A program made the position numbers and the translations under genes. 64,000 nt of DNA. Origin: Microbotryum violaceum. Its lineage: Eukaryota. The notes beneath the pieces were generated by a model, which searched no databases, had not been told where the DNA came from, and was given only the letters and a program-made list of their open reading frames with translations. This document shows, one piece after another, positions 37,062 to 56,806 of this stretch. Location: positions 248,001 to 312,000 of the forward strand of contig CDLV01000015.1 of the NCBI GenBank assembly GCA_001244265.2, read 5' to 3'. The stretch's first letter is position 1, and each line of letters opens with the position of its first letter.

Positions 37062-39266
37062 ATGGGACGACGTTTCACTTCGGTGCGAGGGTTGGATGCG
37101 TTCGGCAAGGTAAGTCTTACAAAGTCGGCCTGTCGCGCCTTTGTTCGTTCGCAGTTGTTGCTGGTGCATGAGCTGACACGAACTGCTCCCCATACAGACG
37201 ATGGAAGATGTCAAGATCAAGACCGGATTCGGTGGAGCTTGTGCGTTGGAACCACTCCACACTGTCAGGCTCAAGACACACCAAGTCGCCCCCGTAACTG
37301 AACCTCCCTTCTCCTTGGCCGACACGCCGGATTGCAGTAACCCTCATTTCGCTAAGCATCATCCTCGCTCTGACAATATACGAATTCGTCGATTATCGGA
37401 GGGTACACTGGGTAAGCGATCGAAGCTTGCTCGAAATTCGACGCGTCTGGTATCCCGTTCGAGAACGCTTTCCTCCCGAACGAGGAGCTGACGGTCGCAC
37501 CCGTCCCCGATGTTCTAGGAACCATCGATCGTGGTCGACAAGTCCCGAGGAGAAAAGTTGGTCGTCAATCTTGATATTGACTTCCCCAGGGTGCCTTGCT
37601 ACCGTACGTTGCCTCACGAGAGCGCGGGCGAGTTCAATGTCCAAATCAATCGACCTACGTGCTGACGAGTTCTTCCTGGTCATGACCGCAGTTTTGAGTG
37701 TGGATATCATGGATATCTCAGGAGAGCATCAAAATGGTGATCAAGCTGCTTCATGCCTCTAAAAGCGCGCGTCATCCAAAGCCCGGAAACGCTGACCTCG
37801 TCCCGTTTGGCCCACACCGCGCGCAGACATTCACCACGACATGACCAAGACCCGTCTGTCAAAGGAAGGCAAAGTGATCGATGCACCGAAAGGAACAGGC
37901 TTGACGGGTGATGTCGAGCGACAGGCGAAGACAAAGGATCCCAACTACTGTGAGTCAGAGCCTGAGCACCATCTCCTTCGAAACTGCTCCGCGCACTAGC
38001 TCAATTTTTGGGGATATCGCGCAGGCGGAAACTGCTACGGAGGTGTACCGCCGACTGAAGGCGAACGACCTGGGTGCTGCAACACTTGCGATGACGTCAG
38101 GGAGTCGTATGTCAAGCGAGGGTGGTCGTTCGTGAACCCGGACAAGGTTGAACAGGTCAGTAGTTCAAGATCTCACCGTCGGCACTGGGCGAGCACGAGC
38201 TGACGCTACGTACCCTACTCGCAGTGCGTATCGGAAGGATGGACCGATCGCATCAAGGAACAGTCCGAAGAAGGCTGCAACGTCGCCGGCAAAGTGCGCG
38301 TTAACAAGGTCATCGGCAACTTCCACCTCTCGCCCGGACGGTCGTTCCAAGCCAACGCGATGCACGTCCACGACCTCGTCCCTTACCTCCAAGACGGGAA
38401 GCGACACGATTTCGGTCATCATATTCGACATTTCTCTTTCGCTTCTGAGCATGAGGAGGAGTTCGTCAGTGTCGGTGGTAGGAGCTTGGAACAAACCAAG
38501 AAGGACTTGGGTATCGTGAATCCACTGGATGGAGTCAAGGTTCACATCGAGGAGTCGAACTATATGATTCAGTACTTCCTCAGTACGTACCGCCTCTTCA
38601 ATAAAGGAGCACTCGGTTGAAGCCTGGGAACTGACAAGCATATGGGTTGTAACTCCGCAGAGGTCGTCTCGACCAAGTTCATTTTCCTTGATGGTCGCGA
38701 GCTGAGGACTCATCAATACTCGGTCACCGAGTATGAGCGAGACTGTGAGTATATCGGGTGAATTGGAGATCGCTGAAGCTTGACAATCATTCTGACCCGT
38801 CGGATTGACACGGCAGTGAGTGATAAGAGCGGCAAGGACTCTTCGGGGCATCAGACGACCCATGGCTACGCTGGTGTGCCAGGTGAGTGAAGAAAACACG
38901 CAGATGGTGACTAAACCGACACGAGCTCATCTACTGCATTACATGCTACATTTTCACAGGCCTGTTTTTCAACTACGACGTCTCGCCGATGCTCGTCATC
39001 CACCGCGAGGAGCGACAATCGTTCGCGCACTTCCTTACGTCGACATGTGCGATCGTTGGTGGTGTGTTGACCGTTGCCAGTCTCATCGATTCCTTTGTCG
39101 TACGTCATCAGCTTCATCTTCGAGAGGGTATTTTTCGGGAGTTTCAGCCCAACTAACAGCGATCTTCTTCCCCCACGTCTAACAGTACGCGGGGAGGAAC
39201 CGACTGAAGACGGGGACGACCAAATCGGGGCTCGGGTATGCCAGACCGGAAGGCAAATACATGTAG
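37062..39266 (+). CDS. ERV46: ER-Golgi COPII vesicle cycling protein Erv46/ERGIC3
   Basis: LDAFGKT, LSVDIMDISGEHQ, CCNTCDDVR, VNKVIGNFHLSPG, QYSVTEYER, PGLFFNYDVSPM, CAIVGGV. Confidence 0.95.
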
Positions 39267-39824
39267 AGAGGTGGTAGTGGTACCGGGGTACTCCACGCAA
39301 AAAGAGCTGTTTGTTTGATTATTGGTGCGCAAGAAAGAACCGTCTTCTGTCGCTTCGTAATCGCATGAGGTAGGGGGGGGGGGGAGCGGTCTGTTGTCTC
39401 GCCGCGCGGGCTACCTATATTTGTCTCTGGCAGTAGCAGCAGCTCGGTGACCACGTGGGGGACGAGCGGCACGCCGGCAGCTGAGCATGGTGTTGGATGG
39501 GTCTTGCATTTTGATAAAACACTGAATTCTCGAACATACTCGCTTCGAAAATATGAGCAACTCAAGACTTTGACTACTCGGTGTCAAAAGCTACGAAAGA
39601 AGGCGAGACGATGGACGGGGATCGGGCGCCGATGATCGCGGAACCGGGAAGTCGGGCATTGCGCCGGGCCGATTTGCGATCGACCGACTCAGTGCTCCCG
39701 TCCCTCCGGCCATCGAGTTCGGGCTTCCCCCACCACCTTACGTCGAGGCTTGGAATTGATCCCCAGCCTCGCCTTCTTGACTTCCTGCCGTCTCGGATAC
39801 CCACCCCCAACTCTGAATCAAATT

Positions 39825-42185
39825 ATGGCGTCGTCGTACCTCTCGACCAGAAATTACCGCGAGCAAGGCAAGCTCGTATCCCTCGCCGATCGGTTCGTCA
39901 ACGGCGGCAAGGACATGTTGCTCAGCAAGAGTTGGACCCCGCTCGTCGTCATCGCTAGGACCACGATCATCAGCATGATGGAACGTATTGAGAGAGGTTA
40001 GTTGGTTCGATTTTGAAGAGCTGGGATCGAGTCGTTGGGAGGCTAGCTCGTTATAGCACCCGCACCCGCCCGCGCTTGCCCCACTTCGGGTTCGTTGCCG
40101 ATCGCAATCGACCGAGAAGGCTCAGGGGCGCGAAAATCGACCTCCTATACGTCGGCCCGGCATCCAGTCGGGTACTTTGGACCAACGTGGAAGACGGAAC
40201 CGGATCTTTCTGACCTCTCGCATCCGTTACCTACCCCTACCAGGTCAATTGCGAGTCATCACCAAGGAAGACGGCATCTTCACCTTCGGCACGCCCGCGA
40301 TCTTCAACGACGAGCACCCGAACCCGAACAAGCAGCAGGAACCCAACCCAGCAAGGGACGAGATTCGGGCTGAGATCACGGTGCTCAACGATGCGTTCTG
40401 GGTCAGGATGTTGCTCTTGGCCGATTTGGGCTTCTCCGAGGCTTACATGAACGGCGATATCGAGGTTGATGATTTGGACGCTCTGTTCAAGGTTGGTAGT
40501 AACCCACACCTCAGTCACTTTTGCTTCTCAATCGCTAACTGTAACTTGATTGAAAACCCACAGCTCTTCATCATCAACCGATCGAGCTTGAATGAACTCT
40601 CGACTGGCTTTGCGGGCAAGATCTTCTCAACCTTCAACGCGATCGTCAATTCTCGTTTCGCCAACTCTCTTAGCAATGCCATTTCCAACATCTCTGCTCA
40701 CTACGATGTCAGTATTGCATTCAGAGTGCCTCCCAGTTTGGACCTAGCTGCTAACATCGGCCCTCGTTTCGGCAGATCTCGAACCGGATGTTTGAATCCT
40801 TCTTGTCCGCCGACATGACCTATTCCTGCGCCATTTGGGGTCCCAAGGAAGGCGGTGTCGAAGGTGATCTGATTCACGTCGGTGACCGCGAGTTCCCACC
40901 AAGGGAAGACGTCGACGAGCTCGAGGTGGCCCAGATGCGCAAGCTGCGAACCGTCATCGCACGTGCGAGGATCAGCAAGGGTGATCGAGTCTTGGAGATT
41001 GGAAGTGGATGGGGAAGCTTTGCTATCGAGGTAAGCACGAGAGCGTTCATTTCATCGAGGAGTCTGCGCTGAACCAATTTGCACCTTCTTCACAGGCCGT
41101 CAGGACGACCGGATGCACCGTTGACACGTTGACGTTGTCAATCGAGCAAAAGCAACTCGCAGAAGCCAGGATTGCTCGAGCAGGCCTCTCCGAGATGATT
41201 ACCGTTCATTTGCTCGACTACCGTGCCCTCCCGGAATCATTCGAGTGAGTTAAGCAAGATCTTGCTGGTCGGCAGCGATCGCTGATGTGGCCCACTACCC
41301 TGACTTCCAGCAACGCTTTCGACCGAGTCGTCTCTATCGAGATGATCGAAGCCGTGGGCCGCGAGTTCCTGCCGGCCTACTTTGAAGTCGTCAACCGAGT
41401 ACTGAGGGAAGATCGAGGATTGGCCGTCGTGCAAGTTATCACGATGCCCGAGGCCCGCTTCGAGGACTACGGAAAGTGAGTGAAGGACTCGGACTCGGTG
41501 GACTCTTCACCTGCATTATGTTGATTAACTCCTTCGGTTCAACCGTTCTTGAACAGGTCTGTTGATTTCATCCAGAAGCACATCTTCCCCGGTGGCTTCT
41601 TGCCGTCCGTGACTTGTCTCGTCGACTCGTTGCTACAAGGCACAAAGGGCAAGCTCGTCGTCGAGCAGATCGAGAACATTGGACCTCGTAAGTCATTCGT
41701 GGGCCGGCCCCCTCCTACTAGTCGTGTTTGACTAGATCTGACGCAAGAATCCTTCCGATGACTAGACTACGCACGTACCCTTCGCGAATGGCGAAGACGA
41801 TTCGAGGCGACCTTCGAGGACGAGATCGTGCCCGCCTTACACGAGGCCTACCCCGAGCTCAAGAGTCGCAAGGGCATCGACACGTTCAAGCGAAAATGGA
41901 TCTGTGAGTCATGGTCGTTGCTGCATCGCCTCCTAGCGGTTGAGAGAAACCGGTGACATGAGATGCTGACCGGTGAGATGTTCCGCTGCGTATTGCGTCA
42001 GACTACTTTGTGTACTGCGAGACCGGCTTCTCTATGCGCGCTCTTGGCGATCACATCCTCACCTTCACTCGCGAGGTCAGTTTGTTCGCCCGTTCAGCTA
42101 CGAGGTTCTCGCCACCTACCTGAGCGGCCCGGGCACTAACAGCAACCCTTACAACGACGTGCAGGGCAATCTTTCTATTCCATAA
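39825..42185 (+). CDS. Cyclopropane-fatty-acyl-phospholipid synthase family SAM methyltransferase
   Basis: DLGFSEAYM, NISAHYD, FLSADMTYSCA, VLEIGSGWG, FDRVVSIEMIEAVG, DFIQKHIFPGG, YARTLREW. Confidence 0.93.
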
Positions 42186-44107
42186 ATATGATATCGTGCT
42201 GCGTAGGGTATCTATACCATATAGACATATACGGAGGGCTCTGTTCTTGTTGACCGTCCTCTCGAAGTAGAATGCTTCTCATACCTATCCGAGGGTTCTA
42301 GAAAGGGGATCCTTTGCTAGCTGCGTATAAAATGCTCTTGCCCTTGGGATTGTTCCACATCACCACTAGGAACTCTCGCAGCAGTCCCTGCACGCTACGG
42401 AACTGTGCTGATGGGGCGTTCGGCTGGACACGCTTTTTGGCGACGTCACTCGTCCCAAGCCCGAAGCGCTTTTGAAAGGCTTTCTGCAGCGCCGACCGTG
42501 CGGCGGTCCTGGAGTCCGCAGGCGGATGCTGCAGCAATGGTTGTTTGAGCTAGGGGAGTCGGCAGCAGCGGTGTGAAAGGCAAAAGAGTTCCGTCAATAA
42601 TTCCTTTGACAAAAGAGACAACTGCCAAGTTCTTTTTCGCTTGTTGCTAGCAGATTCTTGAAAGCGCACGACCTTCCGATTGGTCAGCCCGGCTCACGCG
42701 CTCACGGGCCACAGCCAGCGGGAGAAGAGATCCAACTTTTGCAGCGCAGCCAGGAGAGCGCAACGGCTCATCGACCTTGCTCCAATCCTCGAGGGTGTAT
42801 CAAACCTTGTGATTTGTCAGACTAAAGCTACGATCACAAAGTGCTGTGTGCGCGTTTGCGCAGTCGGGGTGGAAATTGGCGAAGCGCGATTGTCGGACGA
42901 CGTAGAGGGAGCCAGAGGGTTGAAAATGCTTGGCGTTTTCGGCCGCGCGGCTTGCTGACGAGGTTCTTGTGCTCGCAAGGCTTCAGGGCCTGATCGGCTG
43001 AGTTGGGCCCCAGCCGATCGTCCGGCCGCAGGATCTGCCCTACATATGCAGCATACCAGCGTTTTAGCACAGGTTATGGGAGTTAAACAACATAAGAAAT
43101 CCATGGAAATGGGGTGTGCCCATAACAGGAAGGCCGCACGGTGTCCGAAGACCCCTCAGGCACTCATGAGAGCAACTCACAGTTCTATGAGTTCTTACCC
43201 AGGTAGATAGTTAGCAAGGTACGTATGCCTAGTGGTACTTAGCAGCAGCGTCACTTCTTCTTTGCCTGTTGAATACTGCAGATATAAGACGGATCTCGAG
43301 TCAACCACCTCAATACGATCTTCGAGAAAGCCAAAAACTTTCATGCACGCGTCAAACTTTGATAGTCTGTTCGGGGTGGTTCTGGCAGCGTCTGTTGTAC
43401 GACGAGTGTAGTAGGTACTTCCGTAGGCTAACATAAGGTCGATTAGACTTGAATACTGCCAATAATAAAGCAGGTCGGTCACTATCACTGGAGATTTGCC
43501 ATGTGGAGTAGAAAGCTCCCGTGCCAAAGAAGGCTTCCTATTAAGGATTGAACATTCTGCATCGCGAGCCGCCGCCGACATCCTTGCTTTCCTTGATCTA
43601 GGAGTAGGTTGCATAGCCGGATTGGAAGTAAATCTCTTTCAATGTCATCAGAGCAGAACTGGGAGAAGAAACCCAGACAAAAGAGAAAGACAAGTCCCTA
43701 ATTATATAAGACGAAAGACGACTACGCAAGCTCAAGGCCCTGTCCGGCATCGGCCCAAGAATGCGACACTCGGCGATATTGGCGGCGAGCCCGCGCGCGT
43801 TGACGAGAGGTCGTTGGGTTTGCCCAGAGCGCGCGCTGCGCAGTAATTCGGGGTTGGGCTACGGACGTCACGTCAACGCGTCGTCGACAGAACGCTCGGC
43901 TGATTTAGGCCTTGCCCTGCCTGTAACGAAGTCCTCTGCTTTTGAACACTTGCCATCGTCGTCAACACAACTCAAATATCGCTCCGTCTGTACCTGGCCT
44001 GATTTGATTCCTACATTGGTCTCAACCACACTCCCACAACTTCGACGACTTTGTTTGGAGCCCCTCAGCCAAGGCGACCTCCAGGCTCCACCTCCACCTG
44101 TGCCCAC

Positions 44108-47100
44108 ATGGCTATCTCAGCAGGGCGCGTGTCTTTGCTCTTGCATGGAGCAGGGCTGATCTTTGTCTACTCTTTGTATGGGGTACTCCAGGTAGGTGTT
44201 GTTTTCGAGATGTATCTGGCTCGTTCTAATCCGAAGCGCCCGGTCGCCGCGGCAGTCACGCGTCGGCACTCGCGTCAGGAGCTTCGCTTGAGCATGGGTC
44301 TCTCAGGCTAGAAGGGCTTGGATTTGGACTCAATACCGGAGTACTTGGGCTGACACTCTCCTCCAATCTTGTATGTTTTCTCCCAACAGGAAAAGATCAT
44401 GAAGTCGACTTACGGTGAGCCCATTTCTGGCTACTGCGCGGTCGCTCTGCCTACTATATTTCCTGTTCTGACAATCATCACACCATGCCTCCCGGTCTCT
44501 CAAACGATGGGCAGGCCCGAACGGAGAACGCTTCACTTCACCCTCACTGCTCATTGTCGCCAACCGTGTCATCAGTGTTTCGGTCGGTCTGGGTATCCTC
44601 TTCTTCAAATCTCGCCAAACGCCCGAGGCCAGCAGCTTTTCCGCTCGACTGCGGCCAGCTTCATCGATGGTCGCCTACGCGAGTGTCGCCGTATTTAACT
44701 TCCTTAGTACAACCTCCCAGTACGAGGCGTTGAAGTATGTCTCGTACACGACCCAGTCGCTTGCCAAGACGAGCAAGATGATCCCTGTTCTCGTCGTCGG
44801 TGCCGTCGTCTGGAAGAAGCAACACAAACACAGGGAGTGGGTCGCCGGCGCTGTCATCTTGATGGGGTACGTACACCTTTTTTTTGGCTTCAGGTTTTTG
44901 CATTCCGCATTCGGTCGCACTGACCTTGCGCCTTGCCCAACCTTACTGCGTGCGCAGCTGCGCGACGTACCTTTTCTCGCAGCCGCCCAACCCCAAGCAC
45001 CTCTCGACCTCGACTGACCAGCCTTCGGCGTGGAACGGCTTGATTGGGGCACTCTTCTTGATTGCGTACCTCTGCTTCGACGGAATGGTCTCTACGACGC
45101 AAGATAAAGTGTTCGGGCGCAACCCATCCTCGTCTGATCCTTTCGGGCCCGAGTCCCCCGTGCTCGACCAGATGGTGAGCTCGGACCCCTCCGCGCGGAA
45201 GAGAAGTTAGACCGTCGTCGCTAATTGTGCTTTCACTTGCTCCAAGATCTGGACCAACGTTTTTGCTGGCGGCATTGCCCTTTTTGTGGCTCTCTTGTCG
45301 AGCACCACCGGCTCCCTACTGCCCAACTTGGTTTTGCTCATGACGAGCCCTGCGCTCGTTCGGGACATCCTCACCTTTTCCGCCGCGAGTGCGTTCGGAT
45401 TGATCATTCTTCTCAACACTATCGCTTCCTTCGTAAGTCCACCGCAGCACACGACACTAGTCCCTTGAAATGACTGTACCATAGTTGTGTTCGACTGTGC
45501 TGATGCGACTGAATTGTACTTGTAGGGCGCTTTGACAAGCTCATTGATCATGACGATCCGCCAATTTTTGTCAATCCTCATCAACGCCGGCTTGTTCGGC
45601 AACTTTGGCGCCGTCAGCATCGAGGGATGGTGCGGTGTCGGCTGGGTCGCGAGCGGTATCTGGATCAAAATCAACAAGTCTTTCGACCCGCCCAAGCAAG
45701 AAAAGGCTCTGCCCAGAGTTATCGTCTTCTCCGAAGACTCTGACGAAGACGAAGAATCGGATAACCTTATCCACGAGAAGGAGGCCCTCAAGGACGATGC
45801 TGAGGAACCTCTTCACGACTTTCAGAAGAAGTCGCCGTCACACATCAAGACCTGTGAGTTGCACTCGACGTTTTTAGCCTAAAGCAATTCCAACTGGGAC
45901 TGACGCACCGACTGGGGACTGGATCATCCCCAAAGTCACTTTGCAATATCTTATTCCCGTACTCGTCCCTCTCGCCCTTGCCATCGTCATCGCTCCCTTT
46001 GCCCTTTCGAGCGGAAGCTTGCAATCGAGTGGTGCGCTTTCAAAGGCGCAGGAATGGCCGACGAAATGGGTTGAGCATGCGCCTACGTGGCTCATGGGCT
46101 CCACGGCCCAAGACAGCACCGCCAGCTCGGCCACGGATAAGTATGATGCCAGCGCCGCCGAGTCCTTTGCCGAAGCCGAGGCCGAGGCTCAGATCGAGCA
46201 GCAGGAAGCCCAGTCGACCGATTCCGAAGCCGACAGAGCTTACCTTCCCAACCAAGAGACCACTGATTTGTTCGACGGCACCGCGGCTGACGACTCGCCG
46301 GACGCTTCGGCCCCCGCGGAGGAAGTAGCGGACAACACTGAAAACGCGCACGAGGAAGAGATGCTCGCCAAGGTGAATGCAGCCGAGTCGGCCGAAATGG
46401 TCGAGCTGCAAGGGGGTCGATGGGCGCAGCAGCTCCACGACGCTGTCAAGCCCAAGTGCGGGCACATCGACACGGTCCCGTACTCGACGGACACGCGCAC
46501 AGGCTTCGTCTCGTTCCCTCGCTCGGGTAACTCGTTCATGAGGTCGCTAGTGGAGAGGGCCACGGGCTACCAGACGTCGTCGGTGTGTAAGTCGCGACTG
46601 TTGGGGCCGTCGGCCGGTATCCTTTGCTACGGAATGCTGATTTCTACGTGAACGTCTTTTACACTTTCTCCATCGACAGACTGCGATGAAAAGCTCAGTC
46701 AAACGTTCACGGGCGAATGCGACCACCAGACCAACTTCTTTGTCAAAGTGAGGCTGGCGGAAGACCACCTTGTATGCGGATTTCTGTGCTTGTCGCTGAA
46801 CACTTTTCTCCTCCCTCTCGTTGCGACACACAGACTCATTTCCCTGCTCTTCCCAAGGGGGCCATCCAAAACAATCTGGACTATTTCGAGACCTTCGATC
46901 AGACGTTCTTGCTCGGTAAGTCGCTTTATTCCAATGCCCGATCGTTTCGGAACTCAACAACTGATGAATATATCTGTTTGTGGTGCTATCTCAGTTCGCA
47001 ATCCCATCGACGCCATGGCATCGTGGTGGCAGCTCCAGCACAGTGGGCGCACCCCGAAGGCTACCTGCAACACAACGCAAAGACCGCGATCGAAGGTGGC

Positions 47101-47654
47101 AAGTTCGGGGAGGTACATGGCAAACGTATGCTCGACATGGCACAGCGATGGGCCGAACACTCCATGTACTGGCTCGATGTGCCCATCTTGACGCACACCA
47201 TGCGTTACGAGGACCTCAAGGCCTCGCCGATCCCCCACATGATGGGCTTGCTCGCGTTCCTGCTGCCGGAAGAAGACCTTCCCTCACTCGAGAGTTTGGC
47301 GTGCATGGTCGAGCACGACGAATCCCACGAAGCGTAATTCCTTTGCCGTTCTTGGATTCCTCACCTGACCGCCACACCTGTACTGAGCCGTAGCCGTCTT
47401 GCCCTATGTGTTCCAGGTACCACTCTCGACGTGTGAGCGAATTCGCTGCGTGGGATATGTTCGAGCCTGATCTCCGAATGGAGATCCTCCTCACGGTCAA
47501 GAGGCCCTTTTGCATGTTTGGCTACGAAAAGGTTTTGGAGCGAGCCAAAGGGACTCTCCCGGAGATGGAGGGCTTCTGTGCGGACATTGTGGTTGACCGC
47601 GCCGCCCAGCAGGGCAAGCGAGCCTCGCTGCGGAGCCGACGGGCGAGGAGTTGA
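44108..47654 (+). CDS. Fusion of an SLC35B2/PAPST1-like PAPS transporter with a WSCD-like sulfotransferase domain (one apparent 1-nt frameshift at about 47052)
   Basis: Transporter motifs: YGVLQEKIM, GERFT..NR, QYEALKYVS..LAKTSKMIPV, IMTIRQ. Intron 45854-45935 joins KT-F-TLQYL in frame. Sulfotransferase motifs: SFPRSGNSFMRSLVERATG, FVKTHFP, VRNPIDAMASW, RYEDL. Confidence 0.82.
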
Positions 47655-48265
47655 AAGAACATATTGAGAGGATGGTTTTCTCGCGGAGTGGACGTGGAGA
47701 GAGTGGAACTCATTCTGGACCAAGTCGTTGGTCGACTTTATGTATCTACAGCCACATCTCCCTCAATTGTTATACTATGTTACATCACTCGCTTCTGCAA
47801 CCCCAGCCTCTTTCCCGGATTTGATTTCTACTCAGCCCCGGGCGTCCATCGCCGGCAAGACGGAACTGTACATTTCTTGTGATTGCTGTTCGGAAGCAAA
47901 CAACACAAATCATAGGCAGTAACAGTACTGTGTGAACTTCGTGCTCGAGCCTGGTCGCATGTATTCTGCGATACCTCGCTGCGTACTTGTCCGCAATCCT
48001 AGTTCCTTACGCTCGTCGCGACAGGGACAGGAGGCAATCTCATAACCTCTTAAAACACGATTGGACGCAACGCAGCAGAAGATTCTATGCATCCATTCCA
48101 CCTATCAAGAAGAGACTTCAGAGACTTCATTCTCACCAATCCGGACGTTGAACGATTCAATTATCAAATTCGATTGCAGCTTGGTTCAGTTCGTCAAACA
48201 AAGTACTCGGGCCTCGGCACAGGAAGCACGAGGATGGTAGAATCGGACAATACAATGCGAATTGC

Positions 48266-49167
48266 TTAGTGCTTGGCAGTCTCCTTGTGAGCGTCAGCCT
48301 GTGTAAGATGTAATGACATAACAGTAAGCCATCAAGAACTGTCATCGAACTGCTCAGTACCCGAGCTCACCTTGGCGGAGTGGCCGGACTCCTCAATCTT
48401 GTCCGAAGCGGCCGACAAACCGCTATGGGTGGCGGGATAAGGGATCTGCATTAATACCCGGAATGTATATCGCGCGTCATGAGGTGTTTATACTGCTCAC
48501 GCCGAGGCACGATCACCGAGGGACTCGTTGGAGTTCTTCCTGCGGTCGACAAGATAGGGGCCGTTTGTTAGCGGCTGGAGTATGCGCTCTATCGCCAAGA
48601 CTAAGAAAGAAACACGCACATCTGCTGCTTGTTGGCCTCCTTGGAGGATGCACTGTAGAGGTAGAAATAATGTCAGTTCCACGCGATGTTGTGATGGGGT
48701 GATGTCCCCACGAAAGAAGACCGGGACGGGGAACGCACGAGGTGTACTCTGTGGGTAGGTGCAATGCGTTAGCATTTGCTTCGAAGTTCAAACAAATGAA
48801 TATGATTTTGAACTGACCTTGGACGGTCTCCTTGACGTAGTTGGCGGCGTTGGAGACGGTGTCTGTGCACGGAAGCGCAAGGAAGGCATCGAGCAAGAGG
48901 AGCAGGCGGCGATGAGTGACGAGGAATGGTTTGCACCCAACGCAACGGGAAGACACTGACCAGCGATGCTGCCGGAGGTGGTGTTGTTGGTGGCGGAAGA
49001 CCTGAATAAAGAGTCGGGGTAGGATGCCCAGGTACAGCAAAAAAAGCCGTAGACGACGTGGAGCCCGCCCGAGTCAGCAAAGCACATGGTGGGCAAGAGA
49101 CGGGGGGGGGGGGGGGACTTCGTCGGCACGACGTTGTCGTCAAAGGCGTAGCACAGTGTACTCACAT
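48266..49167 (-). CDS. Grg1/Ccg-1 family glucose-repressible small protein (84 aa, 8 coding exons)
   Basis: Spliced product MSSATNNTTSGSIADTVSNAANYVKETVQEYTSASSKEANKQQMKNSNESLGDRASAGLSAASDKIEESGHSAKADAHKETAKH*. Exon lengths 2+41+45+10+33+39+52+33 sum to 255 nt, and all introns are GT..AG. Confidence 0.9.
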
Positions 49168-50944
49168 GATAGTAGTGGTTATTTGGTTTGGTTTGGTGTA
49201 CCAACTTGGGCTTCTTAGATGTGGTGGGAAGGAAAGAGAGAGATAAAAGAGAGGGCCGGCGACGGAAACATCTCTTTCGACCCGGATTCGATAGATGAGG
49301 GAAGCGAGCTCACAGCGAGCCCAAGACGGGGGAGCCATAGCTCGGCTACGTCATGCACTGACGATGGGATCGAGACTGAAGACTGATGCGGGCTCCACTT
49401 TCATGAGAAAACGCCGTCCGGCACCAAACCGCCTCGTACGCGGTTTTGGCCGAACATCCAGGACTTCATTTATCTCCTTAGGGTATATAGAGTTTTCTGC
49501 AAGGCGTAGACCGAGAGAATGGTGGAGGAAAATTTCGAACGAGATTCCGAAAGTGAACTTGGCGGGCGCCGGCGCGGCACAGCAGCGCGCCGGCACATGG
49601 CGCTTCGAGGGAGCGCTTCGAGGGAGCGCTTCGATCATAGAGCCTAGCCTTCAACACCGGGGGCCATGACGCACGAGTCTGAGCCAACACCTTCGTGGCT
49701 CTCGTATTTCACGAGCAAGACTCGCAGGGGGTTTTCCAAAAAGTTAGGGCCTATGCAAGCACTGTTCTGCTCGAGTGAATCCGACTCGCCCGATGCCGCT
49801 CGGCGTCCAGTGTCGGCCAAGGTCATAGCACTACGACTTGAATGCGCAGATTGCCTCCCCGACGCCGACTTTTCTGTGGCTTTGCCGTCGATAAACACTG
49901 CTTACAATGTATCTATGTAAACCGATAATTTGCTCGCACCATCTTTGTCGCGTGTGTGCACGCACCTGGTTGTTGTGCACAGGCCCTCCGAGTCGGTGAC
50001 GACGCCCCGGCGAGAACTCGATCTAAGCTGCGTACATGCACGACGCGAAGCAACGCCCAAGTCCCTGATGAGGAATGTCCGTCTTCTAAGTTTACGGTCG
50101 TGACATTCTCAGGTGAAGTATATGTGGATGTAAAAAAGGCATCGCGCTCGGGGGTTTGTTCTCTGAAATGGAAGAGGAAGGCACTGAAGACCTGACTGCT
50201 CCGTCGGGCCTAGTTGGTGATCAAGCAAAGCGGTGGCACGAGAAGCCGTTCGACTACTTTTCCAGCCCACTTTAGTCGTGTATGATTGTTTCGATGGGCC
50301 GCAGCTCACGAGGTGCGCCGACGGAGTCGGGGCTCACAGTTGCACCAGGTTGCACCTACCGAGGGTCCGAGCGTTTCTTCCTGCCTCAAATTGGCCAGCT
50401 CTTCTTCTTTCGCTCTCCTTTCTTAGACGCGTAACCCCCTCGCACAATCTTCGCCGCAATCAAATTCTCGTACAGACAACCTACAGCACTCACACTCACA
50501 CCCGCACACCTTTAATGTCAGTACGCTGGCCGATCGACGTAGGCGGTGTTCCTGTGGTCTAGATGACTGTAAGGGTTTGATCCCTCAAAGGTCGCGAGAA
50601 CTGCTACAATAGACTGTTGACGTAGTCTGGTCGTTTGAGGTTGTTCCAAATCGTCTAAGTCGTCTTCGTCTAAAGGAAAGAGAGACTATCCAAAGGTACT
50701 GTGACAAATCTATTCAAACGAGAGAGCAAGTTGTCTCAGTTGGGGGTAAGGCCCGTGGGAGGGGCGCACCCCTCACAGTGGCAGTCACAAGTGCTTCAGC
50801 AATGCGGACGTCATTGCCGGTACCAATAGGGTCGAAACGAGTGTAGAGGCAGTGAGCACTGCCGTTCGAGCGAAACGAATAATGGTGCAGGAGGGAAATA
50901 GGCATTTCTCTCGCCTACTTCACTCTAAGGGCATGTGCGCCATC

Positions 50945-52170
50945 CCCACGAGGACCCCCGAAAACCCAGCCATAGGCGGCCCTCTAAAAACGGCCTTTTT
51001 CGAGGCAAAATGTCCAACATTTTTCCCGGATTCTGACTGAAAATGTCCAAATATGAGGGCCGCCTAGTGTTGAATCGTTGAATAATTTCTCAAAATTACT
51101 CTACAAGCTGTACAATGCCCAGAGTCTTTCTGCGCTACGCGCAGACTTCATTAGCTTCATTCCCGCCGCGGAAAGGTTGCGCGCCGCACCAAGCACCAAG
51201 AGCGCCGCCAGCGCGACCGCCAACGAGCCTTTTTCCTGATGAAATGGACTCGAATAGGATCTCAGGTTTGTTTATTCATTTGTCATTGGTGGATTTAGAT
51301 GACACTTTCATCTACATCTATCTAAAATAATGCACGACAAAATAAGGTTCACAGCCGCGCGCTATATCCTAATACCTAGAAATCTCTGGAGAAGTCGGAG
51401 GATATGCAGTTGAGCACACTGGCTAGGCCAGTAGTGTGGGACTCATCGAGCCTGAATCAGAAACAATCATACCCACCAAATCCCCTTGGGTGATTTACAA
51501 AAACACAAGGCGGGCCTTGGACTCCTGGATTAACGCCCGAGCCCTTCGAGTGCCATTTCGCGATCGGTGATCGGTTCCAAAGAATCCGACGAGAATCGGC
51601 GCCGGCGAACCCTGTGAATCTATCGACCGACTAGGAAAAGAACGATATTTCTCGGCGAGAGAGCTTCCAGATCGACAGGAAGGAGAGGAGACGTAGCTCG
51701 ACAAGTCGCGTTCCGAGCGAGACTCGGAGACGATCAACAAACGATAAACGTTCGCAATTGTAAGGGGATGCCTTACAGGAACAGCCCCATAAGTAGCATC
51801 TGAGTAGCTAGAACTATCGAGTACTAGTTGCGACTTGCTTTTAGCCTAGCGGTCAAGAACGACAAATTGTATTTTATGCACATCAGAGGCGCATACCGTA
51901 CAGCAAATGCAGACACTAACGCGCTCCAAATGCAAACAGCGCGCCGCTGGGCTGGCTATAAAGCCCTGCGCCTGGGCCAGCCTCCCGCTACCCTTGTCTG
52001 CGCTTCAAAGTTCGACCGGAGGGAAGAAAATGTCCAAAAATGAGGTGAGCCTCGACCCATTTTGAGCCAAAAACGTCCAAATTTGCGGGCTGCCTAGCCG
52101 CTTTTCCGGTCCCCAGAATGTCCAGAATTGCGGGCCGCCTCTGGCTAGGCTTTCGGGGGTCCTCACTGGG
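50945..52170. mobile_element. Non-autonomous TIR DNA transposon (CACTA/CMC-like architecture)
   Basis: ~38-bp imperfect TIRs (CCCACGAGGACCCCCGAAAACCCAGCCATAGGCGGCCC and GGGCCGCCTCTGGCTAGGCTTTCGGGGGTCCTCACTGGG). Subterminal AAATGTCCAA and GGGCCGCCT motifs recur at both ends. No transposase and no clear TSD. Confidence 0.7.
51404..51499. repeat. ~96-bp dispersed repeat, copy B (copy A at 665-761)
   Basis: Collinear match to 665-761, including an identical hairpin core CACACTGGCTAGGCCAGTAGTG. Confidence 0.85.
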
Positions 52171-52496
52171 CTGCTGGAGCGCGGCCGACACGTGACGTGT
52201 GCTTAAGCTAGCCTGGCCAAAAGATTGCGCGGTTGAGATGTCCCGAATCACCATTGTTCCACGTCATTTTAATATTGGGAAACATCAGGCTTTTGAGTAC
52301 TGGAGCTTGATCAACGAAGTGAAGTCATGTCCGTCCGTATTATGCATCTGCCGCTGTTAACCGCCCCGGGATGATAGGGAGTCCTGGCTATCCGGGTATT
52401 GGGCGACCAACCCCAGTGTAAAACCCGCTGAGGATCGAGATTTTTGGCGCGCGCGCGAGCGCGCGGACTAGACTGTAACTTTGAAGGTACGCCTAA

Positions 52497-52563
52497 GGTC
52501 GGCAGGTCATGGCCGCTCACGCGCGTGGGTAGTGAGCGCGTGAGCGGCCATGACCTGCCGACC
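52497..52563. repeat. Perfect 28-bp inverted repeat with an 11-nt loop
   Basis: GGTCGGCAGGTCATGGCCGCTCACGCGC (52497-52524) and its exact reverse complement (52536-52563). Confidence 0.97.
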
Positions 52564-52617
52564 GAACTCTCGCTGACTGACGCGGAAAGGCGCGCAGCCT
52601 CTCGCTACCTCTCGTCG

Positions 52618-53263
52618 TGCGCGCGCGAAACTCATGGAGCCGATATGGAAAAACGCCGTATGTCTGCAAAGACCAAATTTACCTTGCACCGTGAATGGTG
52701 TGAGATTCGCAAAGTACTTTACTCCTATTTCCTTCTAGCATCATGGCCCCTGTGCCTCTACCTTTATTCTCCTTTAGACCCGGCCTTTGCCGTCTATCTT
52801 CCGCCTTCTGGCCAGACGCGCGCACTTGCCCCCAACTAGCGGGTCCCGCGTGCTTCTCTCTCTCCTGCTCAAGCAACTTCTTGGTCTGGTCTCCCTTGGT
52901 CCGTCGATCAGAGACTTACCACTGCTTGAGCAGGTCTGTGCGTTGCTTCAACATCACAAATGGCTCCCTTCTGATTTCAATCAGCATCGATTGGAAGTGT
53001 TGTTATTCTTGCCAGCCCCTTCACAACTAACTACACGCAAAGCTACCTTGCGCCTTAAATGCCTCCCTTCTGATTCCGCATCGCTTGAAATTGCTGGCTT
53101 TTTTGGCTGTGTAGTCCAGTTGTGAAGGGGCTGGCAAAAGAAATAACAATTTCAATCGATGCCGATTGAAATCAGAAGGGAGCCGTTCACGGTGCAAGGT
53201 AACTTTGGTCTTTGCAGACATACGGCGTTTTTCCATGTGGGCTCCATGAGTTTCGCGCGCGCA
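52618..53263. mobile_element. MITE/foldback-like element with ~155-bp inverted arms; left arm interrupted by a solo LTR
   Basis: 52618-52698 plus 52964-53036 is the reverse complement of 53109-53263. Confidence 0.8.
52699..52958. mobile_element. 260-bp solo LTR with perfect 5-bp target-site duplication
   Basis: TGTGA...TCACA termini flanked by AATGG at 52694-52698 and 52959-52963; the empty site is preserved in the opposite MITE arm. Confidence 0.9.
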
Positions 53264-53902
53264 TGTGTAAGCCCTCCCAAACGGAGGGGCGTCGAGCTTA
53301 CTCTCGTCGCAAGTCGCAAGCTCGCGCAACTGCACACACTGCCAAGGGCACTCCACTGTGCCCAAGGAGGCTCAACTTTTCAGCGGCGAGGGTACTCCGT
53401 AACAAATAAAGGGATTCGATCTCTAGACAGGACTATCGTAGCAGCTTTGACGACGAAATCTTGTGAGACTCTAAGCTTTCATCGCATAGAGAGGCCAACA
53501 ATCCGAATTAGGAGTAGAGAAGGCTCACATTCTCAATCAAGAGTAAGGAATAATTCAATCAGCGGGAAAGAATAATACAGACATTACTGCAGCGTCATCG
53601 TCTCCCGGCAACGACCAAGAATACCCTCGTGATCCGATCGATACATATCACGAAGGGCGAAGGACAAGGGCAAGCATATGACCTCTTACGAGAATCGAGT
53701 TGCAGAAAGAAAAGAGGGGAGCAAGCCCTGAAACTGGGGAGCTTGGTCAGGGGAGGCGGCGCTTGAGTGGGCGGTGCTCGATCTGCCGAATGTAGCAATA
53801 GCAGACGGTCGAGCTCGAGAGCGAAAGTCTCGGAGTCGAGACCATAGCGAAGGAGACGAAAGGTGAATTGGGCACAGCGCGACGCGAGAAGCGTGGTGAT
53901 GG

Positions 53903-56174
53903 TTACGCGGGAAAGGCAGACGCGCGCGGAGTCCAAAGTCGAGACACCACTTCCAGTATCTCCCGCAATTTCGCCTGGACGGCGGCCATCTTTTGCTTGT
54001 TTGCGACCGTGACCTCGGCCTCGCTTGCCCCTCGAGGACCAAGATCGAACGGAAGGGTGCACATCATACGCTCCACAAAGCCGTGCATCTCCGGGCCGAG
54101 CTTTTCAAAATCTTTAAGGAACAGTTTGTGCAAGATGGGGTACTCGCCGTTCCCCCATAGCTGAGTGCGGGCGAGATCCATCGGCAACACCGGACGCCGC
54201 CGTCGACCGCGGCCACGGGGGCGAAGGTCCAGTTCTATCCATAAGTCGGCAGAGAAGCAGCTGCCGACGAACTCGTCCAGAACGAACAAGAACCAATAGA
54301 CCGCTGACTCGAAGTCGTGGTGCAGGGCATGCGAAGGGAGCTTGCTGTACTGCGCACCACCCAGCAAGAGCCAGGAGCGAACCTCCCAGGATACGGTCGC
54401 GCGCGTGAATCGGATCGAACCGGCGTCTTCGGCAGCGACAGGAACCTGTTCACCCGGCTGGGAAACGATGCCTGTCTCCCAGTCGACCAGAACAAGGTGT
54501 CCTTGGTATTGGAGGATGTTGCCGATCGACAAATAGCGATGGTGGATGCCGAGATCGAAGAGCGCAGGCAGAAGGGTGAGAAGCTGGTCGAAAACTTGGC
54601 AAAACTGGGAGTGTGCGCTGCTGAGCGCGGACATCGTCGAGGGGCGCAGGTAAAGGAGTAGGATTGCGCACGACGACCACATCAAGTGTGTGCCGAGGCG
54701 AGTCTCGCAGTCGTTGTTTGGAGTCTTCCGAGTCCAGGAGTATGGGCAGGGCGCTGTCCTCCATTTGCGATCGATGACGACCGAGCGACTTGGCCTTCTC
54801 GAGGAGCGCGACATGTCTTTCGATGAGCTGCGCCGATGCCGACGGAGCCTCGGCTGCGCAGCGCTCGACGATCCTGTTCAGCACATCCGCTTCGTGTCCG
54901 ACAAAATTCGGCGTCGTGAGCTGGATCTTGACCACGAACGAGGGCTCTAGGTAGTCCGTCGATACCGCTGGGGAGCAGGTTACCAAGCTCGGGCGCGTGA
55001 GCTGAAATGTGACCGTAGACCGCCCAAAGACGGAGCTGCCGTTGGCGACTGTGGAGTCAACGAGCCTGACGGGTTCCTCGGCGATGAACTCGACGGTGCG
55101 ACCGACCAGGGGGGCGTGTGCTTCGAGCTCGGACGGTCGAAGATATCTCGTACACAATGCGACGGGGGCAATGCCGGTCTCGAGGCCGCATGCATAGCGA
55201 AACAGAGGTGACAGTCCGGCCGAGTAGACGTCCAGCCCGAGTAGAACGGAAAGCACCGAAGCGAGCTCGCCAAAGCCCTCGCCCCAGCAGTCCGAGATGA
55301 TGGCGATTCGGCACCCCTCGTGATCGAGGACGACGAGGTAGGCTGTGCCATCATTATGGATGGCGAAGCGAGGCGCATACATGCGTGCCGGTTGCGTGAG
55401 CACATCCCGTGCCAGGTCGAGCACGACATTGACGAGAGGGTGTGGGGTTTCACGCGAATCATCTTCCGAGTCGCAGGCTTCAAAAGCCAACGGGACGAGC
55501 GTAGCCCGCGCGGTCGATCCCCCCTTCGCCGAGGTCAGCCCGTTGCAGCACGTCAAAAAATGGTGGTGTTCGATCAGATCAGGGCTGCCGGGGTGGCATA
55601 GGTTGGATAAACGAGCACACCGTTTTGCATGTGCGAGCGTCAGATGTGGCTGCCGACCACGCGCACCGGATGCCTGTGCCGTCAATGAGTCGCGAACCGA
55701 GTTCTTTGAATCAACGTCCTCGCATACGACCTCTGGAATGACTAATACTGGGGATATGGCACTCACAAATTGCGCAAGTGGTAAGACCCAGTCTGCCATC
55801 CTTTGCTCGATCGGTCGCCTGCAGTCCACGTCGAACATGGCTCGAAGCGCTGATCGGCCAACTTGAGCGAGAGCTTCTTGCGCCTGTTCACTGAATTGGG
55901 TTGGCTCAATCCCAAACTCCGAGTGCACCAAGCCGGACGTGCTGCATATCACGATGCGTGGGATGATCTCAGACTCGATGAAGGCCTGATCGACGTCTTC
56001 ATTCAGCTCGGGCAACAGAAGCCTCTCGATCATACCATCGTAGGCTCGGTTGCGAGGGGGTGCGTATTGACTTTGGGACGAGGGGCGGTCAGAGTACTGC
56101 GATATCTGCAGCAATGAATCCAACGACGTGTCCGAGGGCGCGGGTGAAGGCGGGGTCCATGAAGTTGGCTTCAC
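53903..56174 (-). pseudogene. Fungal-type (FunK1 / Pkinase_fungal) kinase pseudogene or pseudokinase
   Basis: VFGRSTVTF, FVVKI, IHHRYLSIGNIL (HRD changed to HRY), LVDWETG, HALHHDFESAVYW. The 574-aa and 303-aa ORFs are offset by a frame change at about 54600-54635. Confidence 0.75.
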
Positions 56175-56806
56175 AGGCGAGGGGGGCTGTGCGGGCTGTG
56201 GCGTGTCAGAAGCGGCGCAGCGAGCCGTGCGAGCCGTAGATTAGCAAGTCTGCAACTCGAACCGAGTCTGGCGGCAGTAATGGTATCTGTACGAATTTCC
56301 TCTCTAGCCGGCTCGTCGAATACATTGAGTGGGGATGCGACACTCAGCGCGAAGCAAGCCGGTGAAGGTGACTCAATCTCGTGCTCCATGTTCAATGATG
56401 CGCACTTAGCACTGCTTCGAGTCTGGCGTTTGCTGGCCAGTGGGCGGTCATCAACCAGAGGACGAGGCCGAAGGCATTTTTTGTTGACCATGCTTGCACG
56501 ATAAGCCGGGGTATGCAGGCGATGCAGGCGATGCAGGGCTGTGTGGGTTGAGAGGAGGAACTGCGCGGCTCGGCGGCGGCACGCGGCCGATGACAGGTTG
56601 CTCTATGCGCGCGACGGGACCGAACCAGACCGAACCCCGCCAGTCACCAGCTGCCGGGCTGCCAGCTGGATGAATGACCTCGCGGGACCGCGCACTGCCG
56701 GGCGCACAGTGGCTACACCGAGCTCTAAGACCAACTTTTGGAGACGATATACGAATCGCACTACTGTAATGCCCTTGAAAGAGGATTTGCAATCAGGCCG
56801 ACCACT

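Follow-up and report, generated by a model that had tools for sequence, protein, structure and literature searches.

Does a single gene of Microbotryum violaceum join a carrier for an activated sulfate donor to the enzyme that consumes it? This question is raised by a locus on contig CDLV01000015.1 (GenBank assembly GCA_001244265.2), of which we have analyzed positions 248,001 to 312,000 of the forward strand; the whole of this stretch of 64,000 nucleotides is called the window, and its first letter is position 1 in the numbering used below. A preliminary description, made from the letters themselves, had proposed that 44108-47654 encodes a transporter of 3′-phosphoadenosine 5′-phosphosulfate (PAPS) fused to a Golgi-type sulfotransferase. 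We find that the fusion of an SLC35B-type transporter with a sulfotransferase is real, conserved and expressed. We interpret it as one gene for a protein of eleven transmembrane (TM) helices, in which an SLC35B carrier, a linker, an eleventh helix (TM11), a stem and a sulfotransferase would together form a unit that imports PAPS into the lumen and uses it there. We put the probability of this reading at about 0.7.

The gene was identified by cluster look-up of the best database match, which led to MVLG_02524 of Microbotryum lychnidis-dioicae (GenBank, 856 amino acids, here P0018). Translation of the spliced window is identical to this protein at residues 1-684 and 686-856. The gene occupies 44108-47654 on the + strand in 11 exons separated by 10 GT..AG introns of 72-198 nt, with its start ATG at 44108 and its stop codon at 47652-47654. 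It amounts to 856 codons once a missing base at 47055/47056 is allowed for. The exons of the gene model are as follows.

44108-44191, + strand: exon 1
44390-44414, + strand: exon 2
44515-44866, + strand: exon 3
44958-45174, + strand: exon 4
45247-45432, + strand: exon 5
45526-45853, + strand: exon 6, without a stop before the GTGAGT donor (45854)
45936-46586, + strand: exon 7
46680-46747, + strand: exon 8
46834-46915, + strand: exon 9
46995-47333, + strand: exon 10
47417-47654, + strand: exon 11

The protein-level features and the junction between the two halves fall on this model in the following way.

44108-45853, + strand: transporter and start of the acidic linker, exons 1-6, with residues 1-338 ending at 45675 (Pfam UAA and the VIA structure)
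45854-45935, + strand: junction intron of 82 nt, GTGAGT...AAG (sequence and the X19 and X20 contigs)
45947-46006, + strand: TM11, residues Y402-L421, YLIPVLVPLALAIVIAPFAL (Kyte-Doolittle score 2.65, modeled helix 394-422)
46007-46453, + strand: disordered acidic stem, residues 422-570 approximately (composition and model confidence)
46454-47651, + strand: predicted sulfotransferase domain, last part of exon 7 through exon 11 (fold search and motifs)
47055-47056, + strand: one base absent, at the third position of codon Pro685 (comparison with P0018 and contigs)

The junction had been described as an intron that carries the transporter frame into a further helix, and every element of it is present: the GTGAGT donor at 45854, the 82-nt intron running to 45935, a CTGAC near 45899 and the AAG acceptor. 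Removal of the intron keeps the frame. The split codon T/TC encodes F398, and the frame runs on into the TM11 sequence. The observation that no ATG precedes this helix is also correct, the frame of exon 7 (open reading frame 45878-46651) having no Met codon before it. If the junction intron is retained the transporter frame stops at the TAG at 45880-45882, and such retention could produce a transporter-only isoform.

Is the splice made in RNA? Two sequencing runs, X19 and X20, both belong to one study of a close relative that is 90-95% alike to the window, and their RNA label is a tool's guess. Each provides one contig lying on 44003-47749 (2849 and 2800 nt, at depths of 268 and 415, respectively) from which all ten introns have been removed. 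The introns are cut at the predicted borders, including 45853/45936, where at least 255 letters lie on the shorter side. At this junction the contigs pass from 45848 to 45936 with five letters between, corresponding to the end of exon 6 in the relative, and the frame is kept (HIKIFTLQY, as in proteins P0001 and P0002). Since splicing joins exons of one pre-mRNA, both halves are carried on one transcript in that relative. These contigs, taken together with the fused orthologues described next, bear out the proposal that the PAPS-transporter-type frame and the sulfotransferase form one gene and one polypeptide.

A search with exon 7 among proteins of 379-2000 amino acids gave 17 matches. All were from Microbotryomycetes (Microbotryum, Rhodotorula toruloides, Sporobolomyces, Rhodosporidiobolus, Phenoliferia and further strains), were 589-930 amino acids long and carried the transporter family PF08449, and 13 of them also carried the sulfotransferase family PF00685. 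We then have the wider view given by a profile of the enzyme domain, compared with 1.84 billion representatives (clustered at 50% identity). It has 4999 relatives at E ≤ 0.001, 1308 at E ≤ 1e-10 and 56 at E ≤ 1e-30. Both halves, as judged with a transporter profile too, occur in 15 of 138 new representatives among the matches listed. Ten of these 15 were looked up, and the names include Mixia osmundae (760 and 765 amino acids), Atractiella rhizophila (751 and 784), Pseudohyphozyma, Phenoliferia, Meredithblackwellia (750) and the tremellomycete Kwoniella bestiolae (675). Fused forms thus exist beyond the 17 full-length proteins of the Microbotryomycetes, and the two halves are not always split.

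When 73 enzyme domains are placed in a tree, all 28 fused sequences fall within one cluster of 30 rows, with a Shimodaira-Hasegawa-like approximate likelihood ratio (SH-aLRT) value of 93, which is short of the star threshold. Two rows of this cluster are unfused, and both are fragments. This pattern would fit a single origin of the transporter-sulfotransferase fusion.

Stand-alone relatives of 320-425 amino acids (P0032, P0028, P0157, P0160, P0161, P0163 and P0164) make up the unfused clade that the tree places nearest to the fusions. P0032 and P0028 have an N-terminal hydrophobic helix, and P0164 comes from the bdelloid rotifer Adineta vaga; for this stand-alone group the language-model Atlas points to ciliates. 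The same sulfotransferase family has entered other fusions. In P0262 (891 amino acids) it is joined to sulfatase and SGSH_C domains, so that sulfate-adding and sulfate-removing domains stand in one chain, and in P0204 (820 amino acids) it is joined to PA and GDP-fucose protein O-fucosyltransferase domains.

The N-terminal half presents little difficulty as to its family. Residues 15-338 match Pfam UAA (PF08449) at 116.8 bits, where the cut-off is 26.2 (E 1.4e-33), covering profile positions 7-309 of 311. In the AlphaFold2 model this region has the ten-helix fold of the drug/metabolite transporter (DMT) superfamily, with a predicted local distance difference test (pLDDT) value of about 90 across the helices. 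It superimposes on human SLC35B1 (VIA) with Z = 33.5 and a root-mean-square deviation of 2.6 over 292 of 295 residues, at 26-29% identity. By computation, residues 1-338 are an antiporter of SLC35B type with the fold of nucleotide-sugar transporters (DMT).

The choice within the family is less clear-cut. It had been claimed that the motifs QYEALKYVS and IMTIRQ place this half with SLC35B2/PAPST1 and not with SLC35B1/HUT1. The motifs do match those of oyster PAPST1 (QYEALKFVS and IMTIRQ), and human SLC35B1 has NSALQFVN and ITTTRK in their place; the scores, on the other hand, show a divergent SLC35B protein. The N-terminal half scores 116 bits to oyster PAPST1 (97-130 to the proteins named PAPST1) and 80 to human SLC35B1. 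PAPS transporter 1 or B2 is the name of 18 of its 99 short relatives, three are called plant UDP-galactose/UDP-glucose transporter-like, and SLC35B1 or HUT1 is the name of none. The ligands of phosphate in SLC35B1 are K117, K120, R276 and K277, and its closest isoform is SLC35B2, according to PMC12267056. The first three of these residues align with K121, K124 and R300 here, and K277 is replaced by Gln both here and in oyster PAPST1. Because the scores are divergent and the Atlas names SLC35B1 first, PAPS specificity is something that we infer: the carrier half would import PAPS, for which the main support is its permanent pairing with a PAPS-using enzyme.

What lies between carrier and enzyme? 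A full-length AlphaFold model, built on an alignment of 56 rows, has a mean pLDDT of 76. In it ten helices are modeled with confidence, followed by disorder in the linker (347-388), a helix at 394-422 (pLDDT 85-92), disorder again in the stem (426-560, pLDDT below 50) and a confidently modeled globular domain at 570-845. The disordered linker between the carrier and TM11 is thus some 60 residues long and the disordered acidic stem after TM11 about 140. The extra helix and the acidic stem that had been reported after the transporter are therefore there. TM11 has the highest Kyte-Doolittle score in the protein (2.65), three Lys stand within the 15 residues that precede it and one on its other side, and residues 422-585 hold 33 acidic and nine basic residues. 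Of the 38 two-domain proteins listed, 34 have a hydrophobic segment at this place, ahead of the PRSGN motif. Sequences from Mixia and from one form of Atractiella fall below the hydrophobicity threshold, yet they keep the KQY..P..VP helix. Helix, stem and folded domain give a layout like that of a type II Golgi enzyme, except that the anchor follows a ten-helix carrier instead of a short cytosolic tail. The hydropathy and conservation of TM11, and the excess of Lys on its transporter side, would fit a lumenal position of the enzyme domain.

We turn to the enzyme half, whose motifs lie as follows.

46517-46534, + strand: PRSGNS, residues 592-597, the 5′-phosphosulfate-binding (5′-PSB) motif
46745-46747 and 46834-46839, + strand: K637-T-H639, at the motif position
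46997-47023, + strand: RNPIDAMAS (R666...S674), the 3′-phosphate-binding (3′-PB) motif
Residues 735-739: RYEDL, at the motif position

The hallmarks of sulfotransferases are the 5′-PSB loop, the Arg and Ser of the 3′-PB site eight residues apart, and a catalytic base, with roles in PAPS binding and catalysis; KTHxP, RNPxD...S and YEDL are motifs of the SULT type. The SFPRSGNSF and VRNPIDAMAS motifs named in the preliminary description are both in the predicted protein. Across 34 aligned sequences G595, N596, R600, K637, H639, R666, N667, P668, S674 and E737 are invariant. PRSGNS, K637-T-H639 and R666...S674 are invariant or nearly so in these 34 and in 68 aligned relatives. Of the 28 fused proteins, 27 have PRSGN[ST], 25 have K[TS]HxP, 27 have RNPxDxxx[ST] and 23 have RYEDL.

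Folded alone, the enzyme domain reaches a pLDDT of 91.1 and a predicted template modeling score of 0.88. It was compared with 48,161 representative chains of the Protein Data Bank (PDB) with no prefilter. Ranks 1-22 were all sulfotransferases, with Z falling from 14.7 to 8.2, and unrelated P-loop kinases stood below them. The highest values were those of mSULT3A1 (14.7), SULT7A1 (14.5), SULT1B1 (14.3), the sulfotransferase domain of an olefin synthase (13.7) and StaL (12.9); TPST1/2 gave 11.1-11.2, the heparan-sulfate enzymes 3-OST and NDST 10.2-11.1 and Stf0 9.1. A search prefiltered with Foldseek had no Golgi-type sulfotransferase among the 50 matches listed, and it was the wide search that placed the Golgi types, at lower Z. 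By sequence the enzyme half had no match in the PDB (Teg14 at E 0.54). The Atlas labels for this half, which are coarse, are ciliate hypothetical proteins and bacterial sulfotransferases.

Of the expected pair of families, Pfam places UAA clearly and the sulfotransferase family just below its cut-off in MVLG_02524. Sulfotransfer_1 (PF00685) falls on residues 663-754, scoring 24.9, 27.3 and 32.3 bits in orthologues, 21.2 in MVLG_02524 itself (cut-off 22), and being found in 55 of 68 relatives. Single exons of the enzyme half gave no Pfam match, and the match appears with full-length proteins. On the modeled structure and these motifs, the C-terminal domain is a predicted PAPS-dependent sulfotransferase of SULT fold. 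The label "WSCD-type" that it had been given is not supported. WSC domains (PF01822) were absent from P0018 at E ≤ 0.1 and from the 78 scanned of the 138 nearest representatives, no WSCD entry was among the fold-search matches listed, and the fold is nearest to cytosolic SULTs (Z 14.7) as against 10-11 for the TPST and heparan-sulfate enzymes.

One defect in the window bears on this half, and had been missing from the earlier account of the gene. A base is lacking between 47055 and 47056, in codon 685 (CC-) within a CCCC/G run, where the local reading is ACCCCGAAGG; the loss puts this window alone out of frame. Read literally, the frame after WWQLQHSGRTP ends at a stop at 47189-47191, and the proper continuation, EGYLQHNAK...RYEDL..., lies in the next frame. 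The transcript contigs of the relative have a G inserted behind 47055. Over 45236-47800 a contig of run X3, which is independent DNA of the same organism, reads 2566 letters where the window has 2565 places, shows no substitution, and so has one extra letter somewhere in that range. We hold it to be very probable that the gap is an error of consensus or assembly in a homopolymer run, and that the gene is not dead.

Three other accounts of the locus, and the observations that weigh against our own, can now be considered. One alternative is that two adjacent genes have been merged by the predictors, so that the transporter stops at the intronic TAG (45880-45882) and the sulfotransferase, a type II protein, begins further downstream. 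Stand-alone type II relatives are indeed known (P0032 and P0028, for example), in Sporobolomyces ruberrimus neighboring locus tags 004448 and 004449 are annotated as a transporter of 321 and a partial enzyme of 280 amino acids, and four proteins terminate directly after TM11. These four also count against our interpretation: Rhodotorula sphaerocarpa, R. dairenensis and R. taiwanensis have an annotated transporter with TM11 of 433-441 amino acids that lacks the enzyme domain, and P0048 of Meredithblackwellia eburnea (406 amino acids) likewise stops after carrier, linker and TM11. Moreover, the spliced contigs come from a relative and from one study with a guessed RNA label, and their spliced origin shows solely in the absence of introns. 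Those contigs nevertheless connect 45853 to 45936, and the frame of exon 7 has no Met before TM11 with which a second protein might begin. In the S. ruberrimus pair TM10, the linker and TM11 are missing from both pieces, as in a broken prediction. In addition, transporter helices, TM11 and PRSGN stand in one product in eight proteins from Logan/ENA assemblies (P0056, P0057, P0088, P0094, P0099, P0111, P0144 and P0146). We regard the merging of two genes as barely credible. A different objection is that this copy is a pseudogene, the missing base being real and the last third of the sulfotransferase domain cut off, so that the transporter would be joined to a disabled enzyme. The window as written is one base short at 47055/47056 and does not code for the full protein, ACCCCGAAGG being a letter short of an intact frame that otherwise meets the stop at 47189-47191. 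The extra letter of X3 is placed no more closely than within 45236-47800, and among the indel rows listed, ten others lying outside the listing, the row for a G behind 47055 has a depth of 0 for X3 and for X18. A gap within a GG or CCCC run can, however, be placed one position off on the other strand, homopolymer runs such as this site are a typical location of consensus errors, and X3 has exactly one letter more than the window with no substitutions. P0018, from the same species, is in frame and otherwise identical to the window, and the remainder of the 856 codons is free of other defects. A pseudogene is thus improbable.

The third alternative accepts the fusion as real and questions the substrate: the cargo of the carrier might be ATP/ADP, as with SLC35B1, or a UDP-sugar, as with HUT1 and the plant UDP-sugar transporters (UTR), with the enzyme obtaining its donor by another route or having another role. 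Several points incline this way and against PAPS import. The only solved relative of the carrier is the ATP/ADP exchanger SLC35B1 (Z 33.5, 26-29% identity), the Atlas feature search puts SLC35B1 clusters first for the N-terminal half, and three plant matches are named for UDP-galactose and UDP-glucose. The N-terminal half is no more than modestly nearer to PAPST1 (116 bits) than to SLC35B1 (80), and animal PAPST1 and SLC35B1 score 150 bits to one another, so that PAPST1 is nearer to SLC35B1 than to the Microbotryum carrier. Also to be weighed against our own reading, on the enzyme side, the score of Sulfotransfer_1 on MVLG_02524 is just below the cut-off, and the fold is nearest to cytosolic small-molecule sulfotransferases and not to the known Golgi enzymes. 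Set against the change of substrate are the names of the relatives (18 of 99 PAPS transporters, none B1/HUT1), the scores of 116-130 bits to PAPST1 compared with 80 to B1, and the features common to the carrier half and PAPST1, namely QYEALK[YF]VS, IMTIRQ and Gln in place of the Lys found at SLC35B1 position 277. It is, furthermore, hard to see why else the carrier should have stayed permanently fused, in several fungal classes, to an enzyme that uses PAPS. We therefore think a carrier of ATP/ADP or UDP-sugar unlikely, and retain the import and use of PAPS by one protein as the preferred reading.

A few further observations were made on the sequences involved. At 45742, in the acidic linker of exon 6, six window bases are absent from the X18, X19 and X20 contigs. 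The difference matches one of two residues (Asp-Glu) in length between P0018 (SEDSDEDEESDN) and P0001/P0002 (SEDSDEESDN), and is an indel polymorphism in a low-complexity cytosolic linker. In X3 the depth rises to about 607 at 45184-45282 (intron 4 and the start of exon 5), compared with about 233-244 around it, and several extra X3 contigs end there with unrelated loose ends; a piece of some 80-100 bp from this place seems to be repeated elsewhere in the X3 genome. Of the truncated proteins, the three from Rhodotorula (P0045, P0046 and P0047) and P0048 have either lost the enzyme domain with TM11 kept or have downstream exons that are unannotated. A complete fusion, P0153 (750 amino acids), is present in Meredithblackwellia too, as is a separate sulfotransferase of 496 amino acids, P0162. 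Around the gene, eight long stop-to-stop reading frames taken from both strands of 38165-56237 gave no Pfam match at E ≤ 0.001.

How might such a protein work? SLC35 carriers have a cytosolic C-terminus, and from this, with an odd eleventh helix added, it follows that the enzyme would lie in the lumen of the Golgi or endoplasmic reticulum (ER). TM11 would carry the chain from the cytosol into that lumen. The carrier half would import PAPS made in the cytosol, and the tethered enzyme would transfer the sulfate to a lumenal acceptor, which may be a glycan, a protein, a lipid or a small molecule. The 3′-phosphoadenosine 5′-phosphate (PAP) released, or AMP derived from it, would be the counter-substrate for the next cycle of import, and in this way one polypeptide would match the supply of PAPS to its use in a ratio of one to one. 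PAPS import, lumenal topology, a Golgi location and a glycan as acceptor are all to be understood as predictions. Going further, we tentatively propose, at somewhat less than even odds, that this is an old natural covalent machine for import and use, each PAPS imported being paid for by PAP from the tethered enzyme. Its origin would be single and older than the division of Pucciniomycotina into classes, it would have reached, or persisted in, the Tremellomycetes, and sulfation of some target in the secretory pathway would be a trait of many yeasts and smuts among the basidiomycetes.

The gene predicts lumenal sulfation in basidiomycetes, among them the engineerable oil yeast Rhodotorula toruloides and the anther-smut model Microbotryum. 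If this is true, a possible class of sulfated fungal molecules, at the surface or secreted, is at stake. To our knowledge, and as far as we have searched, lumenal sulfation of this kind has not been described for fungi. Our literature searches found no description of a transporter-sulfotransferase fusion, no mention of MVLG_02524 or U5H5F0 and, among the matches listed, no sulfated products of red yeasts. The MVLG_02524 protein itself is held in public databases under generic, uncharacterised names.

It remains to compare the protein with systems that are known. Each half belongs to a known superfamily. The carrier resembles SLC35B2/PAPST1, the Golgi PAPS transporter of animals (slalom in Drosophila), in its UAA family and ten-helix DMT fold; with oyster PAPST1 it has 31% identity over 338 residues and shares QYEALK[YF]VS and IMTIRQ, and PAPS transporter 1/B2 is the commonest name among its distant relatives. 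It differs in the C-terminal additions of eleventh helix, stem and enzyme, and in the absence of the long N-terminal extension of animal PAPST1. It is moreover divergent, animal PAPST1 scoring 150 bits to SLC35B1 as against 116 to the Microbotryum carrier half, and its substrate is a predicted one. SLC35B1/AXER, the ATP/ADP exchanger of the ER, is the best structural match, and the equivalents of K117, K120, R276, D183 and Q190 are kept (residue roles as in PMC12267056). Unlike the fusion, SLC35B1 stands alone, and it differs in the motifs of TM4 and TM9 and in K277, which is Gln here.

The enzyme has its nearest folds in cytosolic SULTs and the glycopeptide sulfotransferases Teg12 and StaL, with which it shares the KTHxP, RNPxD...S and YEDL motifs. 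Those proteins, however, are soluble and cytosolic and act on small-molecule acceptors, whereas the present domain is anchored through a membrane helix followed by a long stem, and in its 5′-PSB loop Arg replaces the usual Lys. WSCD1 and WSCD2, the Golgi sialate O-sulfotransferases, share with it a membrane anchor and the 5′-PSB and 3′-PB motifs, and their catalytic domain is lumenal according to PMC9304399. Their anchor is a single N-terminal helix and not a transporter, and the WSC domain is lacking here; this separation was made without direct sequence comparison.

A parallel in logic is provided by non-covalent complexes of nucleotide-sugar transporters with glycosyltransferases, namely SLC35A2-UGT8, SLC35A2/A3 with MGATs and SLC35A2-B4GALT1. 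In section 4.7 of PMC9368800, work on animal cells is taken to argue that donor transporters and transferases associate in order to couple supply and use. The fusion is the covalent counterpart of these animal complexes. The proposed logic, donor import coupled to donor use, is the same in both, but there it involves separate proteins that associate, whereas here the coupling would be fixed in one reading frame, making the protein a clean system in which the coupling of supply and use might be tested.

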